Below, one piece after another: positions 49,653 through 58,533 of a DNA stretch of 64,000 bases. The DNA is taken from positions 2,452,571-2,516,570 of the forward strand of contig CP166621.1 of NCBI GenBank assembly GCA_041937185.1. Direction: 5' to 3'. A model generated the notes under the pieces. It was not told the origin of the DNA and searched no databases. It saw nothing but the letters and a program-made list of their open reading frames with translations. The translations under genes were made by a program, and so were the position numbers. The first letter of the stretch is position 1; each line of letters opens with the position of its first letter. The DNA is from Leptolyngbya sp. BL-A-14. GTDB taxonomy: Bacteria > Cyanobacteriota > Cyanobacteriia > Leptolyngbyales > Leptolyngbyaceae.

Positions 49653-50793
49653 TAGGATCGCACCTTCTGCATCTTTATTTTTTTAATCTCTACGGGTCCA
49701 ATTCCCCGTCTGCTTGCAGCGTTTGTAGTGGGCGGAAGTGCGTCCCGAAGGGAAAATTCCGTAATGCCTCGTCTGCTTGCAGCGAGGATAGGAATTTTAG
49801 CGCTCCGCAACTTTTACTTGGAAAACCTTTTTAAGGTATCAGACATTTTTTCTCTTCTTTCAATCAGAAAACCTACCTTTCCCCGCGCCATAAAAGCATC
49901 GTGAAGGTTTGCTAAAAGACGAGAAAGCCCGACACCAGCGATCGGGCTTGTAATGAAGAACTTACTGTATTTTTGCTGGCTAGCTTAGCGTACCCAAGCA
50001 GATTGAATCGGTGAACATTGCCAACCTACGTGTCCTCATCCTCGTTATCCCACGATTCTTGGTCATAACCGAGGCGCTGCAGCATTTTTGGGTTCTTGGG
50101 TCAAAGAGCACTGCGCAGGGAGCACCGTGCAGACAGGCGAGGGGCAGAAAATTGCCAGAAGTCTCGACAGAAGGGCTTCTAACCGCAATCAACTTGCTAA
50201 GAGTTACGTTAAGACTTAGTCGTCTCAATGTGGACTATACCTTTTTGAGGGGTCGTGCAAAGAACCCCATTTTATGCTCCTGACTACTCAACTCATCCCA
50301 ATTGTTTTCATAGGAGTCTGGTGGACGATAGCGATCACTCTGCCAGGGCAGACGGTCGTAGGCTTGAGTTCTGCTTAGGAGTTTGCCTAAAGACGAGAAA
50401 GCCCGATACCAGCGATCGGGCAAGTATTCACCTTGAAAAAACGCCAGTAACGAAACTGGCGTGCTTATTGTGCCCATTCATAAGCAGAGTTAACAGAGCG
50501 ATCGCCCTTCCCACTCTGGACTAGCTGCAAACTGGCACAATTACCGAAAGTCTTACGCAGTGCTAGTTTCACTTTTTCAGTGTCTTGCACTTCTGCCATT
50601 TAGGCAGTGAACCCAATGGACTAAATACTAACTGAAAGTGCTATTGAATAAATGTTTTAGATTTTTAGGTTAGTCCAACTTTTCAACTTTGGACTACGAT
50701 TGGACTAAACGCCTTAAATGTGACAGTTGCTGAATAAAGCGATTGTGCCAGTTACGTTAGCGCTGTTAGCCCGTTAGCAATTCAGGTTTTCTT

Positions 50794-51006
50794 ATGAGTC
50801 AGCAGCCGATGGTCGGGTGTCGAGTGCCCTCTGCTTGGCATGAGGAAATTATAGCCATCACTGAGGCAACCGGGCAGAGCAGCAGTGAAGTGGTGAGAGA
50901 GGCGATCGCTCTCTACCTAAAGAAATCGAAAGCGGTTACAGTGCGATCACGCCTGGACGACTTGGAGCAACGGTTGAACAAGCTGACGCTACTGGTAACG
51001 CAGTGA
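50794..51006 (+). CDS. Ribbon-helix-helix (CopG-family) DNA-binding protein
   Basis: ...SSEVVREAIALYLKK... RHH helix pattern, 70 aa. Confidence 0.5.
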   Translation: MSQQPMVGCRVPSAWHEEIIAITEATGQSSSEVVREAIALYLKKSKAVTVRSRLDDLEQRLNKLTLLVTQ

Positions 51007-51140
51007 TATCCAGGAAACTGAAAATCTGAGTGCGATACCGAATGAGACAAAATGAAGTGAACCCACCAATTCGACAGGGAATTGAAGAATTTAAGGTTTC
51101 GCTTCATTCCTTTTATAAAAAAGTCACAGGGACGCTGAAT

Positions 51141-52052
51141 TTAACCTGACAGGCTGAAATGGACCATCCATCCTTTCGTTTCTAACTCTTTGCCAGAGAA
51201 GGTTAGCTTACCTCGATGCCCTAGCTCAACACTGTAAAAGTCAGACTCCGGCACTTTATCAATGACAAAAGGAAACACGCACAGGTTTGAATCTCGATCT
51301 GATTTAACGACTTTGCCTTCTCCCAACGAACCAAGCGCAATCATTTTTCCGCTACTATCTAACACTGTAATTTGTGCGCCTGCATTCAAATCGTCAAACC
51401 CGCCAGACTCTACATTGTCATTACCTCGGCAAGAGTCTCCTTGATGTTTATATACAGAGACCAAGGACCCACCTGCTGGATCAATGGTTAGGTCACCAGT
51501 GACTGTGTGGGATGCTGGGGCTAAACCAGGAAGGGCGACTGGCAAAACTGTACTGTCTTTGACCTTGAAGAGTCCTACTCCGAACCAAAGAGCGCTTGTC
51601 ATGAAGAAGGTGCCCACAACTAACACAGATCGTTCTATGTTGCGGTTCCAGTAACGCTGAATGTAATTGGTACGGATACTTATGGGCTGAAGTGATGTTA
51701 TCTCAGGAATAGACTTGGGACTAGCAGCTATTGCTTGGCTTGAATTGGGTGGCTCGCTTATGGTTAAGTCAACGACCTCACGCCACTCGAAAGCGCTATT
51801 ACCCTGTTTCTTGCCTTCTACGATTAGCTTGTTAACCCCTTGGATGTTCAGCCCCCTGATTCCTGTCCAAAGAAAGTTAATCAGCGCTGAACGGTTGGTT
51901 AGTGTTTCAAACTCAACTGCTACAAGCAACCGTTCACCTACTCGTGTCGTCTTGACCTGCATTCCCTTTGGCTGAAGCGACTTGTTGATTAATGCAGCAA
52001 TTGCTTGCGGGTTACCCTGCTTTGCAAGTTCCAGAGCGTTTATCTGACTCAT
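51141..52052 (-). CDS. Membrane protein (single TM helix), last gene of the minus-strand RHH/ParA-fusion operon
   Basis: Soluble ~140-aa N-terminal domain, a TM helix VLVVGTFFMTSALWFGVGLF, then a beta-rich C-terminal domain. Confidence 0.4.
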   Translation of the reverse strand: MSQINALELAKQGNPQAIAALINKSLQPKGMQVKTTRVGERLLVAVEFETLTNRSALINFLWTGIRGLNIQGVNKLIVEGKKQGNSAFEWREVVDLTISEPPNSSQAIAASPKSIPEITSLQPISIRTNYIQRYWNRNIERSVLVVGTFFMTSALWFGVGLFKVKDSTVLPVALPGLAPASHTVTGDLTIDPAGGSLVSVYKHQGDSCRGNDNVESGGFDDLNAGAQITVLDSSGKMIALGSLGEGKVVKSDRDSNLCVFPFVIDKVPESDFYSVELGHRGKLTFSGKELETKGWMVHFSLSG

Positions 52053-52126
52053 AAAATCAAAATGAGTGGAGTTTTCTTAAAGGAGAATTGATAGACATGA
52101 CGTGAGATTCTGAGTTGCTCAGTGCT

Positions 52127-52921
52127 TCACAAAGTAAACAAGGTCTTGAAAGTTTTGACTTTAGCGGTATCAATGCCACAGTCCAGCTTTGTGAGCGGGG
52201 TCAAACTCTTCCACTTACTCCTGTTCGCACTGGCAATCAGATCAGAGACGGCTTCAGGGTCGATCGTGTCAAAGCCCCCAATTTTATAGGTGTTTAGATA
52301 GTTCAAGCGCTCAAAGATTTCGGCTTTCGATGCCTGCTTGATGCTGATGACGGACGGTGGTGCTGGCGGTGGCGGCGGCGGAGTCAAGTAAAAGACAGCG
52401 CTCAAAGCATCGAGCTTCTTGCCCTTCGTGATACCGCACCCAAGCTTAGTAATGGGTGTGAAGTCTTGCCAGGTACTGCGATCCACAGCCGCAATCTTAC
52501 TGGCAGCGATCGTGGCATCGACTGTTTTCAAGGGACTGCCAGGCTGATTAACAAGATGCTTCAAAACCGACTTGATTGTCTCTCTAGAAGCAGTTGTGAA
52601 ATTCACTTTGGGAGTCACTTCTCCAGCGAGAATGCGAGCCTGTTCAATGTCTGGCGTGCTGGACTTAATGACAAGGCACCAAAGTTCCTCTAGTCCTGCT
52701 TGAGTCGCAACGACATAGACAAAATGGTTGGTAACTGCCCTGTACGTATAATCTTCGACCTCTTCCACTAATAACGGCATCCAGTTATGCCCGCCAGTTT
52801 TGAGGAGCGCCTCAGCAGCAGCAGCAACAATGTACTCAGGGGGAGCTGCATAATCGTCAGTGGGTAGAATGCTGTCGATCGGCAGACACATGAGTTGCCC
52901 GACGTTATCAAAATCACTCAT
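52127..52921 (-). CDS. ParB-like N-terminal domain protein with a duplicated C-terminal ~45-aa repeat
   Basis: N-terminus LMCLPIDSILP...MPLLVEEVEDYTYRAVTNHFVYVVA is ParB/Srx-like but degenerate. Internal repeats RSTWQDFTPITKLGCGITKGKKL and RSKWKSLTPLTKLDCGIDTAKVK are separated by a PPPPPPAPP linker. Overlaps the upstream ParA-fusion gene by 8 nt. Confidence 0.45.
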   Translation of the reverse strand: MSDFDNVGQLMCLPIDSILPTDDYAAPPEYIVAAAAEALLKTGGHNWMPLLVEEVEDYTYRAVTNHFVYVVATQAGLEELWCLVIKSSTPDIEQARILAGEVTPKVNFTTASRETIKSVLKHLVNQPGSPLKTVDATIAASKIAAVDRSTWQDFTPITKLGCGITKGKKLDALSAVFYLTPPPPPPAPPSVISIKQASKAEIFERLNYLNTYKIGGFDTIDPEAVSDLIASANRSKWKSLTPLTKLDCGIDTAKVKTFKTLFTL

Positions 52922-54278
52922 TTAGAAAATACTCCCTGGCGAGTTCAAGATAATAGGCGTGAATTTTCTTGTTTTTGAGCACAGCAGGTACGCGTGCAAA
53001 AGCAGAACTGGAAACAACGGCATAGTCTGGGAGGTTGAACACGGTTTTGTCCACGTTGCCAGGTCGGATCTTAGGAAAAAAATACGGCAACATATTAATC
53101 CCATCTGCTGGGTTTGCCTTTAAAATTCGCTCAATCTCCTCGCGTGCCATATCGATTGAGCGACCAGCAGCAGGACTGCCATTGAAGAAAATGGGAAGCG
53201 CGATCGGCCCACCATCTTGCCTTAACGTTTTGACCTTGGGCACAAACTCCTGCACAACTCTGGCAGCATTATGGAGCGATGACAGATCATCATGGCGAGT
53301 GGGAATCAGTACAGCATCAGCTGCATAAACCCCACTCTGACTAAAAAAAACCCATTGTGTCGGACAGTCAATAAAGATGTAGTCATACTCGTTGCTAAAC
53401 GGTTGCAGCAAATCTCTGAGCCGAGCGGACGCTTTCTGTACACGGGCTTGGGTATCTTGGGTAAACGCTTCCATACCCAGATCTGCTGGTATTACATCAA
53501 AAATGTGATACACCTTCCCAGCTCTTAGAGTCACTTTATACGGCACGATGGTCGAGCGGATATCTAAAGCTCTGTCTTTTAAGCACTCAGACAGCTTGAT
53601 GTTGTTTGGCTGTAGCCCTAAAGATGTTGTCAAATCACGCTGGGAGTCGAAGTCAACCAATAGTACTTTCTTCTTCTCAGCTGCTAAAGCCGATGCCAAG
53701 TTGATAGTCGTCGTCGTTTTACCTACGCCACCCTTGTTGTTGTAGACACAAACACTGAGGCTGCGAGGAGGATTGTCAATCAGTTTCTTGATTTGATCAA
53801 CGACAGACTTAATATTCTCTCCAGTAATTTCAATGCATTTCGTTGCAGGCACAACAGCCTTGTTGTGATGTCTAAAAAGCTGAATATGAGTTGAGTTAGT
53901 AATAATACCCCAGTGGGCAGTCTTGCCTTTGGGGGAGAGCAGATACCGTTTTAGTTGTGCTCTCGTTGATAGGTATTGTCTAGAGCCCTCTGCTAGATTG
54001 ATGGGGCTGCCTCCACCTGTAAAGCGCCCTTTAATTTCAACCATTAAGAAAGGATCGGCTTTAGTAAAGCTGAAGTTGTCATCAGCTGTGTTCTTGCGAG
54101 CAGCAAAATCAACACTGTCGCTTCCTGCTCCAGTCGCCAATTCACCTACGCGCTCATTTGCGCTAAAGCCCAGCGCTTCCAACAAGTAAGGGACAAAGTG
54201 ACTACCCACGTCAGCTTCTGTTGCCTGCGGAGGAATATTGGCTAAAACTTTGCTCCAATCCATCAACGCTGACCCCAC
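52914..54278 (-). CDS. Fusion of an HSDR_N-like PD-(D/E)xK nuclease-fold domain to a ParA/MinD-type Walker ATPase
   Basis: N-terminal ~150 aa: EADVGSHFVPYLLEALGF...DSVDF...DPFLMVEIKG, a restriction-enzyme N-terminal-like D...E.K pattern. C-terminus has the deviant Walker A YNNKGGVGKTTTT, LLVDFDSQ and IFIDCP of ParA. Confidence 0.6.
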   Translation of the reverse strand: MGSALMDWSKVLANIPPQATEADVGSHFVPYLLEALGFSANERVGELATGAGSDSVDFAARKNTADDNFSFTKADPFLMVEIKGRFTGGGSPINLAEGSRQYLSTRAQLKRYLLSPKGKTAHWGIITNSTHIQLFRHHNKAVVPATKCIEITGENIKSVVDQIKKLIDNPPRSLSVCVYNNKGGVGKTTTTINLASALAAEKKKVLLVDFDSQRDLTTSLGLQPNNIKLSECLKDRALDIRSTIVPYKVTLRAGKVYHIFDVIPADLGMEAFTQDTQARVQKASARLRDLLQPFSNEYDYIFIDCPTQWVFFSQSGVYAADAVLIPTRHDDLSSLHNAARVVQEFVPKVKTLRQDGGPIALPIFFNGSPAAGRSIDMAREEIERILKANPADGINMLPYFFPKIRPGNVDKTVFNLPDYAVVSSSAFARVPAVLKNKKIHAYYLELAREYFLNE

Positions 54279-54396
54279 TCAGAATACGTGGCTAACTCTT
54301 GCGTGATCGCAAGAGCAATTTCTTTTCTAAAGTGCCCTATTTATGAGGGGGATAACAGTAAGTTCACAGGAGCATGACATTAACTTGTTGAACACT

Positions 54397-54588
54397 TCAA
54401 AGGTTGTGCTCAGTATCACGTAAAGCCGCTTCTTTGATTGCAGCTCTCAGCCACTCTGCCTGGTTCGGTCGCGATCGAACGTATTCATAAAGCTCTTTTG
54501 GAAGAAACACCGGAATCGGCTTTTCAGCCAATGGCTCTGGTCCTGAAGGTTTGAAACGGGTTAGATAATCAGCACGTTGCTCAGTCAT
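54397..54588 (-). CDS. Ribbon-helix-helix protein upstream of the ParA-fusion gene
   Basis: 63 aa with IPVFLPKELYEYV...AEWLRAAIKEAAL. Confidence 0.45.
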   Translation of the reverse strand: MTEQRADYLTRFKPSGPEPLAEKPIPVFLPKELYEYVRSRPNQAEWLRAAIKEAALRDTEHNL

Positions 54589-54682: not shown

Positions 54683-55417
54683 TCAATAGCTGCGTCCATT
54701 ACCACCGTTGTAGAAAGCTGCTCTTTCGGTAGAGCTTAGCGTCCGGGTCCAGATTGCTAAGGTGTCAAGATAGCCGTTCAGGCGTTGGTTGTCGCTGAAG
54801 TTGACATCATTGCCAATCACTAGAACGTTGCTGGCTGCGTACAAACCAGTACCGGAGAACGCACTGGATTGCACCAATGTACCGTTGACTTCCAGGTTCA
54901 CGGTTTTGGCTTCAGCATCGAACCAGCCAATGCAGCAAAGCCATGTGTTGGTGGGTGGATCAGTCAAACCCGCCAGTGTGACTCCCGCTCCGGTTTGATC
55001 GCCCACATAGAAAGCTAGGCTGCCATTGTAGTAATTTAAGCCACAATGCCGTCCAAAGTTAGTATTAGAGCGATTGATAATGGCTGTTCCGCCCGCTGAG
55101 GGAACCTGCCATGCTTGGACATTAATCCAGCAAGCGAAAGTAAAGCTTTGGCTAATAGTGAACGCTGTAGCCGTGTATAACGCTGACGAAGTGCTGATGT
55201 TGAAGTAGTTAAATGATCGCCCATCCCAGCAGTGACCAGGTTTGCCATTCTCTACGATATTGCCTGACCCGCCAGCATTGTCTGTAGGCAAGTGGTAGCC
55301 ATTGGGTGAACTGTCGTTATAGTTCTCGAAGTCATACCATGCAAGCAATCCGGTTTTGAGGATGTCAGTTGCGCTCCCACCAAAGCCAGCAGGTTTGATA
55401 AACAACGGCATCGGCAT
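54683..55417 (-). CDS. LamG/concanavalin-A-like lectin-fold protein (paralog of the 55646 product)
   Basis: Gly/Ser/Thr/Asn-rich beta-sandwich-type composition. Aligns with its paralog at ...WxCxGWFDAEAKTVNLEVNGTL and ...WHYVCVSRSGTSTMQGWIDGT. Confidence 0.45.
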   Translation of the reverse strand: MPMPLFIKPAGFGGSATDILKTGLLAWYDFENYNDSSPNGYHLPTDNAGGSGNIVENGKPGHCWDGRSFNYFNISTSSALYTATAFTISQSFTFACWINVQAWQVPSAGGTAIINRSNTNFGRHCGLNYYNGSLAFYVGDQTGAGVTLAGLTDPPTNTWLCCIGWFDAEAKTVNLEVNGTLVQSSAFSGTGLYAASNVLVIGNDVNFSDNQRLNGYLDTLAIWTRTLSSTERAAFYNGGNGRSY

Positions 55418-55645: not shown

Positions 55646-56368
55646 TCAAGAGTTGGGGAACGCAGCATCCGGGACAGCCGATCCGTCTTTGCTCTGCCCT
55701 GTGGTTAGTCGAATCTCGTCCATAAAACCAGGAAAGAAGGCTGAGCCTGAAGCATCAACGCCAATACGAGCCTGAGAAAGCACTGTGGCGTAATTAGAAG
55801 CGGTTGAAGTGTTTAAGCGTCGAGTGCCATCAATCCAACCTTGCATCGTTGATGTACCTGATCGGCTCACGCAAACGTAGTGCCACTCGTTCAACGAGAA
55901 GCCACCCGTACCGCTGGCACCACCCGTATAGGAATCATCGAGATAAAACCCGTAAGTTGAATCCAGATACAGTTGCAAGATTGAGTTACCGAAGCTGGGC
56001 GAAGTTGGTTGCAAGTTGAGCCAGCTATAACGACCTGCTGCTGTCATGTAGATCCACGCTTCATAGATCCAGTTGCCGCTGCCAGGGCTAAGAGCAGCAC
56101 TGTTAGGCAGGATTAAGTAATCGGTTGAACCATTGAACGCGATCGAGCTGCTGCCGTACTTGAATTGAGCAGTGCTCGTAACTGGAGTGCCGCCAGGGGC
56201 AATATTGTGGACATAACTACTGTTATCGGTGAATGTCGAGCCACCGTTACTGCCCTCGCTATGCAGCAACAGCCTGACGTTGCTATATGAAACACCATCA
56301 GCCGTATAGCCACCACCACCTGCCGGTGGTGTACCTGATCCAAGCATCGTACCTGGGAAAGTAAACAT
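55646..56368 (-). CDS. LamG/concanavalin-A-like lectin-fold protein
   Basis: See the 54683 entry. Confidence 0.45.
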   Translation of the reverse strand: MFTFPGTMLGSGTPPAGGGGYTADGVSYSNVRLLLHSEGSNGGSTFTDNSSYVHNIAPGGTPVTSTAQFKYGSSSIAFNGSTDYLILPNSAALSPGSGNWIYEAWIYMTAAGRYSWLNLQPTSPSFGNSILQLYLDSTYGFYLDDSYTGGASGTGGFSLNEWHYVCVSRSGTSTMQGWIDGTRRLNTSTASNYATVLSQARIGVDASGSAFFPGFMDEIRLTTGQSKDGSAVPDAAFPNS

Positions 56369-56559
56369 CTAGCCAAGTCCTTTCTTGAATGTGTATGAGG
56401 TTTTCGATCGCTGCTCATTATCATGAGGTTTCCAATCGGCGAGCCTGGTTATGAGGTTTCCAATCTTCATCGTGATTGGTCAAAACTTTACGCTGCCTTC
56501 CATGCTCTACTTTGAAGCGCGAGTAAATGTTTTGAGTGGTTTCATTAACGCCCCTCAGC

Positions 56560-57368: not shown

Positions 57369-58037
57369 TCAGCAGTGATTGGTCCCGTTGACGACTGCCA
57401 CGGTTGCCAGTTCTGAATCAGCTCGCGCTGTCGCTGTCGTGCTTCCGGTGTCCATCGGGGCATAGGGTGAAGCCTCTAGTGATGTGGCTGCATGGGACTC
57501 TTGCTCAACTTTCAGTTGGTTGACCTGCTTATCAACGTAGTTTTTGATGAACTGGCTCGGCTTCTTAGGATTGCGAATGTTATCCAGCGTCGTGATTGTG
57601 CGGCGGGATTGCTCCTGGCAGCGGAGTGCTAATTCGAGCAGGCGCGATCGAAGAGTCGTATTTGGCGCACTGTGAGACGCCGTAGCCATGTTGTAAAACA
57701 GAAAATCCAGCGTCGTGATTTGCACTGCTAACCGAGCCTCTAACTCTTTTTGGCTAAAGCCTTCGCCTGTCTGCAAGGCATGAAACGTGGCAATGAGGTT
57801 GTCTGGAGCCGCACCGGGGTCATTAAGTGCAGCAGCAGCTTGGAAATAAAAACTGGTACGCAAACGGGTATCGTTCTGGGCTGACTCACTAGCCTCAACA
57901 GACTCGCCATCAAGCGTCACTTGTAATTGGCGTTTGACTTGCTGCTGTGCTTGCTGCTGCTTTTGAGCCTGGTTTTCTGCCTGCTTACGTTTAGCTATCT
58001 GCAAAAGAAGATCGTGCGACGTTGGTTTTTTTGACAT
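57369..58037 (-). CDS. Hypothetical Gln-rich protein at the island's right end
   Basis: 222-aa ORF whose start is embedded in three tandem TTTTTTGACA 10-mers. Confidence 0.35.
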   Translation of the reverse strand: MSKKPTSHDLLLQIAKRKQAENQAQKQQQAQQQVKRQLQVTLDGESVEASESAQNDTRLRTSFYFQAAAALNDPGAAPDNLIATFHALQTGEGFSQKELEARLAVQITTLDFLFYNMATASHSAPNTTLRSRLLELALRCQEQSRRTITTLDNIRNPKKPSQFIKNYVDKQVNQLKVEQESHAATSLEASPYAPMDTGSTTATARADSELATVAVVNGTNHC

Positions 58038-58411
58038 TTTTTGACATTTTTTGACGTTTTCTAGCGCTTTCTGCCGATGACCCTCTTTGTCGGTTCACAA
58101 AAAACTCAAATGAGTATCACCTATGAGTTGTGCGATCGTTGTTTCAGCGATCCACTTCACGTCAGCAGACAGCTTGTTAATGAGTACCTAGAAGCTTCAT
58201 CGAACTAGGCAACGGACAACAAGATCGCGGCGTAATATTCTTTTGCCACAAGCTAGCTGAACAACTGCTCTCTTCTCTTTACAACAGACAGTTCAAGTAT
58301 AGACAGTGCCAACATAGGCAGACACACAAAGATCGTGTCATCAACTCGTATGGATAAACATACTTAGCGAGTTGTTGACACCGCTAGGGTGAAATATTCT
58401 CTTTTACTGGT

Positions 58412-58459: not shown

Positions 58460-58533
58460 TCGGGATGACAGGATTCGAACCTGCGGCATCCTGCTCCCAA
58501 AGCAGGCGCGCTACCAAGCTGCGCTACATCCCG
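58460..58533 (-). tRNA. tRNA-Pro (anticodon UGG), CCA not encoded
   Basis: Hand-folded cloverleaf: acceptor CGGGATG/CATCCCG, D-stem GCGC/GCGC, anticodon stem CCTGC/GCAGG with loop TTTGGGA, T-loop TTCGAAT, 74 nt. Confidence 0.9.

Follow-up and report, generated by a model that had tools for sequence, protein, structure and literature searches.

To our knowledge, ParA/MinD ATPases are understood as positioning switches that do not act enzymatically on their cargo. ParA proteins form ATP-sandwich dimers, and their partners stimulate ATP hydrolysis through N-terminal peptides. In type I ParA-ParB systems (Soj/Spo0J; P1 ParA, F SopA, RepA), the partner ParB carries a GERRxR box for cytidine triphosphate (CTP) and a helix-turn-helix (HTH) centromere-binding domain, and the ParA of type Ia has a large N-terminal extension with a winged HTH. 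PD-(D/E)xK nuclease domains of the HSDR_N kind belong to another group of proteins, the type I HsdR and type IIG/IIL restriction enzymes (BpuSI, DrdV; HSDR_N/HSDR_N_2), where they are joined to a superfamily 2 translocase or to a methyltransferase. Here we describe a two-gene cassette in a 64,000-nucleotide (nt) stretch of the Leptolyngbya sp. BL-A-14 genome (the window; contig CP166621.1, positions 2,452,571 to 2,516,570). It shares the layout of type I systems and the large N-terminal extension of type Ia, but the extension is an intact PD-(D/E)xK nuclease domain, which is thus joined to a ParA dimerisation switch. The partner has a ParB fold and, in place of the CTP box and the HTH domain, two helix-hairpin-helix (HhH)2 modules. 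No published description of a nuclease-ParA fusion or of the cassette was found in a search that left out most subscription journals, so that an earlier description is possible. The cassette has the following parts.

54278 to 52914, minus strand: fusion open reading frame (ORF), 454 amino acids (aa), HsdR-type nuclease plus ParA
53763 to 54263, minus strand: N-terminal HsdR-type PD-(D/E)xK nuclease domain, residues 6 to 172, with the catalytic candidates E21, D57, E81-x-K83 and Q108-xxx-Y112
52914 to 53762, minus strand: ParA/MinD-type deviant Walker A ATPase domain with KGGVGKTTT, DFDSQ and IDCP, including the stop codon
52921 to 52127, minus strand: partner ORF, 264 aa, its ATG overlapping the fusion stop
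52622 to 52921, minus strand: ParB/sulfiredoxin (Srx)-fold N-domain of the partner, including a conserved N-terminal peptide
52388 to 52609, minus strand: first ComEA-like (HhH)2 DNA-binding module, partner residues 105 to 178
52355 to 52387, minus strand: poly-proline linker TPPPPPPAPPS between the two modules, from the translation
52127 to 52354, minus strand: second ComEA-like (HhH)2 module, partner residues 190 to 264, and stop codon

A preliminary description of this locus had joined an HSDR_N-type nuclease fold to a complete ParA, and this assignment held. The N-domain of the window fusion itself had no Pfam match at E<=1, and nothing was found when its HMMER profile was run against the PDB. 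Among 38 full-length homologues of the fusion, however, 20 matched Pfam HSDR_N_2 (best E 1.1e-6) and 11 matched HSDR_N. The N-domain has the structure that defines HSDR_N nucleases, an alpha-beta-beta-beta-alpha-beta core whose strands 2 and 3 bear D...(D/E)xK, and its closest relatives in both structure and sequence are the nuclease domains of restriction enzymes. The ParA domain matched AAA_31 (E 6e-33) and has the three-dimensional fold of ParA. The predicted structure of the fusion (predicted template modelling score, pTM, 0.90) indicates a fixed mutual arrangement of the two domains.

The 454-aa frame named earlier exists, but the real start of the protein is likely ATG 54263, giving 449 aa. 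The NCBI annotation of the same genome has, on a 7.19-Mb contig, a 100% identical 449-aa "ParA family protein" (P0001) that starts there (MDWSKVL...), and ATG 54263 agrees better with the homologue alignment than GTG 54278. Residue numbers in this text follow the 454-aa ORF. The 8-nt overlap of the fusion end with the partner start had been correctly reported and lies at 52914 to 52921 in the translation; the two genes are translationally coupled.

How strongly the two active sites are constrained was read from 199 unique full-length fusions with identities down to 26%. The nuclease residues D57, E81 and K83 were kept in all 199, as were K182 and K187 of Walker A and D304 of Walker B, showing that the nuclease site is as constrained as the ATPase site. 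The other nuclease candidates were nearly invariant (E21 in 196, Q108 in 193 and Y112 in 195 fusions), and so were the Walker A' aspartates (D209 in 197, D211 in 198). Because the conservation of D57, E81 and K83 is no less strict than that of the Walker A and Walker B residues, nuclease catalysis, and not mere DNA binding, is probably under selection.

When the N-domain alone was searched exhaustively by phmmer against 1.84 billion representatives, just 96 proteins came back. Since these were mostly fusions of about 450 aa, the N-domain subfamily is nearly confined to the ParA-fusion architecture; no established partition-only function was found for it. A few relatives are elaborated. P0287 (1268 aa) has a superfamily 1 (SF1) helicase in front of HSDR_N-ParA, P0298 has a tandem double nuclease domain, and together with P0278 and P0256 they make up a set of rare forms, some with extra N- or C-terminal repeat domains. 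The SF1 helicase fusion and the duplicated nuclease domain agree with a DNA-processing enzyme.

The conservation of the nuclease site bears on one alternative, namely that the pair is a true partition or positioning system. The nuclease-fold domain would then serve only in DNA binding or autoregulation, like the winged HTH of type Ia ParA, and the ParB-fold/HhH protein would be the cargo adaptor. In a canonical par operon, a ParB-fold gene comes after a ParA gene, as it does here, and a length of 450 aa with an N-terminal extension recalls type Ia ParAs. The top NCBIfam match of the fusion was partition_RepA, though at 77 bits it lay far under the cut-off of 348; with a PD-(D/E)xK fold in the place of the winged HTH, the fusion lies outside type Ia. 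Against this alternative, the D, E and K are 100% conserved, whereas purely DNA-binding descendants of nucleases usually lose their catalytic residues.

The partner bears on the same question. As proposed earlier, its N-domain is a degenerate ParB/Srx domain without the arginine box. It has the ParB/Srx fold, and 27 of 34 partner homologues gave a weak ParB_N match. In place of the box II arginine motif GERRxR, hhalign set (S/T)NHF(V/I)Y opposite GERRFR of Spo0J, an alignment that is a lead only; the box II columns of the partner alignment (A2) contained zero arginines. The lack of an arginine-rich nucleotide box also separates the partner from the non-canonical ParB/Srx folds of PadC, KorB, pNOB8 ParB-N, sulfiredoxin and SbnI, from which it differs further by its duplicated ComEA-type (HhH)2 C-terminus. 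At its N-terminus, the partner has the peptide MSDFDN(I/V)G(K/Q/E)LM.LPL, with an invariant G8 and a variable basic residue (Q9 in the window). Canonical ParB has the ParA-activating peptide LG(R/K)GL at this end.

The region after the N-domain holds the two ComEA-like (HhH)2 modules and no central HTH centromere-binding domain. The modules share 33% identity across 63 aa (E 1e-11), and by this comparison they are a true duplication. The preliminary description was right about the duplication and the poly-proline linker, part of which is encoded by a CGGTGG tandem repeat found by a repeat finder at 52355 to 52381. It had put the repeats at about 45 aa; each is an (HhH)2 domain of about 75 aa, and the stretch of about 45 aa is its conserved core. 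In those proteins in which ComEA-type (HhH)2 modules have been examined, their DNA binding is not sequence-specific, the HhH contacting the DNA backbone. Public annotation calls the fusion "ParA family protein / AAA family ATPase" and the partner "hypothetical protein / Rho termination factor". The partner of a Snowella metagenome-assembled genome (MAG; L080 740-1690) has three (HhH)2 modules and ends in a Rho_N-like tail, and the NCBI name "Rho termination factor" on many partner homologues probably stems from such a tail in some of them.

For a pure partition role, the absence of a sequence-specific HTH and the nonspecific type of the HhH modules are unfavorable. So is the apparent lack of centromere-like repeats: repeat finders detected no array near the window operon (48.4-58.7 kb), and no parS-like repeats of the kind known from type I par systems were found at the pair. 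K-mer enrichment in 63 upstream and 67 downstream regions gave no universal motif, in a simple test that degenerate sites could escape; from both searches, the only yield was HIP1-like palindromes and sequence conserved between closely related Nostoc genomes.

Which genes belong to the cassette was determined with 80 loci. They were retrieved with the partner family as query from a set of bacterial and archaeal genomes in which each species is represented once. In about 72 of them, the fusion gene precedes the partner gene and its stop overlaps or abuts the partner start; the remaining loci lie at contig ends or are fragments. When the neighboring ORFs were clustered, only two families recurred, the fusion in 77 loci and the partner in 78, and the conserved module is therefore a two-gene cassette. 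The next clusters reflect lineage-specific synteny: 20 loci, most of them from Nostoc, have rtcA downstream, and 15, chiefly from Microcoleus, have a GHL10 gene. No methyltransferase, specificity subunit or translocase recurred next to the pair.

The preliminary description had counted ribbon-helix-helix (RHH) genes and a membrane protein gene as parts of the module. All five ORFs it listed are present in the window translation at the coordinates given there, four in series on the minus strand and one on the plus strand. Besides the fusion and partner ORFs they are:

54588 to 54397, minus strand: 63-aa ORF, upstream gene, possible RHH-type regulator, outside the conserved cassette and lineage-specific
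52052 to 51141, minus strand: 303-aa ORF
50794 to 51006, plus strand: 70-aa ORF, RHH

None of these three is conserved with the pair across the 80 loci. We asked whether the 303-aa protein could be a third component and dismissed the idea: the protein had zero homologues in these loci and is unrelated to the gene after the pair in Phormidium. Neither it nor the 63-aa protein nor neighboring proteins had informative matches in Pfam, NCBIfam, PADLOC or PHROGs. Only one of the two flanking genes called RHH earlier kept that name: the 70-aa protein is a genuine RHH protein (RHH_1, E 2e-5), and the 63-aa protein lacks a family match. The 63-aa gene has homologues upstream of the pair in just L005, L055, L066 and L067, which are a few Leptolyngbya and Stenomitos relatives, and the gene may be a local regulator. 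In two relatives (L004 8048-8796; L067 8302-9035), homologues of the 70-aa gene stand directly upstream of a small ParA gene. No small ParA accompanies the 70-aa gene in the window, which makes this RHH gene a possible relic of a type Ib partition module.

The survey of genome contexts suggested at the outset also gave the distribution of the pair. The partner family was matched in at least 240 species genomes, essentially all of them cyanobacterial. They span Trichodesmium/Okeania, Thermosynechococcus, Nostoc, Microcoleus, Planktothrix, Snowella and Pleurocapsa; a strain of Nostoc punctiforme (L045) is among the carriers. In the sampled genomes the pair has ordinary chromosomal surroundings, with these neighbors:

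Phormidium ambiguum: tmk-holB
Anabaena sphaerica: topA / ndhD
Leptolyngbya JSC-1: prmA / serA
Nostoc and Cylindrospermum: rtcA
Gloeothece verrucosa PCC 7822, main chromosome (CP002198, at about 1.74 Mb): cpeT / aroA
Microcoleus: restriction-modification (RM) and toxin-antitoxin genes

Carboxysome genes were absent from the sampled contexts. In this the pair differs from McdAB, as it does in its proteins: McdA has no nuclease domain, and McdB is a disordered/coiled-coil carboxysome binder, whereas the partner is a ParB-fold/HhH protein.

A neighbor-joining tree of the fusion resolved coherent clades of Nostoc, Microcoleus, Microseira/Phormidium, Leptolyngbyales and Trichodesmium/Okeania and largely matches taxonomy. 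The cassette is vertically inherited on cyanobacterial chromosomes and syntenic within genera. Plasmid copies were found on two Nostoc UHCC 0870 plasmids and on Acaryochloris pREB8, and they branch separately from the chromosomal copies. Overall, the partner occurred in just 4 of 72,556 plasmid records. No phage record covered the fusion N-domain, and no IMG/VR viral contig encoded the partner.

A second, distant clade has the same architecture. Its 466-aa HSDR_N-ParA proteins (Leptolyngbya FACHB-321, Stenomitos) have the Walker A sequence NQKGGVAKTT, and the ParB-fold/HhH partner has a different N-terminus (L066 4556-6756, also L052, L055 and L067). In front of this unit stands a homologue of the 63-aa gene of the window. 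In Leptolyngbya sp. FACHB-321 the system occurs in three copies overall. Outside cyanobacteria, a contig of the "Rhizobium sp. Q54" MAG (L068) carries a cyanobacterial-type fusion and partner (42-46% identity), which reflects either binning contamination or a rare transfer beyond cyanobacteria.

The plasmid copies complete the case of the pure partition alternative. That the pair is found on some cyanobacterial plasmids speaks for it, as does a 2020 review according to which cyanobacteria are without a classical ParA/B/S mechanism (PMC7766704). However, the pair is rare on plasmids overall, and the plasmids that bear it also have ordinary ParM or small ParA systems. With the nuclease triad and the partner taken into account, we regard this alternative as improbable.

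The same data bear on a role in anti-plasmid or anti-phage defence or exclusion, which the preliminary description had offered as one of two options. DNA-loaded ParA dimers would cut, and the ParB-like partner would mark or protect resident DNA or sense foreign DNA. Such a role would fit the invariant catalytic residues and the kinship of the N-domain to restriction-enzyme nuclease domains. It would also fit the Microcoleus loci, where the pair adjoins an Eco57I-type RM gene, a ParE toxin gene and a SocA_Panacea gene, and the coexistence of plasmid-borne paralogues with ordinary partition systems. The distribution, however, does not favor it. Unlike typical patchy defence islands, the cassette has a stable position within genera and a taxonomy-congruent tree; its contexts are mostly metabolic or housekeeping, and it is absent from phage and viral collections. 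There is no cognate methyltransferase, as restriction-modification would have, and no other recurrent neighbor. The PADLOC-DB v2 match was limited to the P-loop of the fusion (PDC-M28B, 40 residues), with none for the partner or the neighbors. We therefore consider a defence role possible but doubtful.

The other option had been a partition module of an excised element, composed in this window of RHH, fusion, ParB-like and membrane protein genes. A few local features are suggestive. The only tRNA gene of the window, tRNA-Pro (TGG), which is also its sole Rfam match, lies 4 kb from the pair; RHH genes had been placed on both sides of the pair, and homologues of the 70-aa RHH gene adjoin small ParA genes in the two relatives named above. 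In addition, a 2.3-kb stretch at about 48.5-50.8 kb lacks convincing ORFs. Yet no integrase or phage-like gene was found near the pair in the window, and a repeat search of 48.4-58.7 kb found no att-like direct repeat of the tRNA-Pro 3' end. The window fusion is nested in the chromosomal Leptolyngbyales clade, apart from the plasmid copies, and neither the RHH genes nor the gene of the 303-aa protein is conserved along with the pair. Chromosomal, syntenic and taxonomy-congruent inheritance, ordinary neighborhoods, absence from phages and viruses and rarity on plasmids all contradict this option. It is largely refuted, and we hold it to be extremely improbable.

Several features of the surroundings were noted besides. 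The stretch without convincing ORFs holds a 46-nt repeat (49907 to 49952 and 50381 to 50426, 89% identical) that contains a GC-rich stem-loop; Rfam gave nothing there. Just upstream of the cassette, the minus strand encodes two Laminin_G_3 (concanavalin-like) paralogues, one of 244 aa and one of 240 aa (54683 to 55417 and 55646 to 56368), with a 58-aa coiled-coil-like ORF between the two; both paralogues are absent from all 80 loci. Three copies of the 16-nt motif TATGAGGTTTYCRATC, spaced exactly 28 nt apart (56394 to 56465), lie between the second of these genes and a divergently oriented 173-aa ORF, with a fourth copy 1.7 kb off (58122 to 58137); this array could be a binding array of a regulator. 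At 58027 to 58060 and 58460 to 58533, a tandem TTTTTTGACA x3.4 at the start of an unassigned 222-aa ORF lies beside the tRNA-Pro gene.

We tentatively prefer a reading that we rate a little short of even, in which the pair acts as a nuclease that is gated by ATP-driven dimerisation on DNA and regulated by the DNA-bound partner; judging by the distribution, it would serve in the housekeeping of the cell's own multi-copy DNA. ATP would drive the ParA domains into a nucleotide-sandwich dimer on DNA, and this dimer would pair two nuclease domains and so license nicking or cleavage. HsdR- and type IIG-kind nuclease domains need two copies for a double-strand break. The partner, tethered to DNA by its HhH modules, would engage ParA via its N-terminal peptide and ParB-fold domain; this contact would lead to ATP hydrolysis and dimer release, and cutting would thereby be limited or directed. 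We propose these steps because of the established behavior of ParA dimers, HsdR/type IIG nucleases, ParA partners and HhH modules. The role would be the resolution or processing of DNA coupled to the distribution of genome copies, and neither mobile-element partition nor classical phage defence.

Some observations weigh against this dimer-gated housekeeping nuclease. We know of no precedent for a housekeeping ParA that requires an active nuclease. A ParA-stimulating N-terminal peptide should have a basic residue, and the partner family does not conserve one (Q9 in the window). Near the operon no DNA motif, operator or centromere, shared across orders was found. Divergent copies of the pair sit on plasmids, and some pairs, such as those of Microcoleus, adjoin restriction-modification or toxin-antitoxin genes.

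According to a 2025 preprint, the upkeep of Anabaena's roughly 8 chromosome copies at division is unexplained (10.1101/2025.06.27.661541). The cassette is a concrete, genetically testable candidate for genome-copy maintenance in cyanobacteria and may bear on DNA handling in bacteria with multi-copy genomes. There is a small chance, in our judgement, that the pair supplies the missing component of this maintenance in polyploid cyanobacteria, or a major one, as a ParA gradient machine with its own nuclease and a CTP-independent ParB-fold/HhH adaptor that distributes chromosome copies and cuts or resolves them. This would be a ParA mode dependent on DNA cleavage, without a described counterpart. 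If the pair is instead a vertically inherited DNA-surveillance nuclease, it would represent a new design of ATP-gated DNA cleavage. The partner would exemplify a ParB fold that uses ComEA-type modules in place of CTP box and HTH. The range of the ParA family would be extended by a nuclease site that, in hundreds of cyanobacterial species, is conserved to the same degree as the ATPase site.

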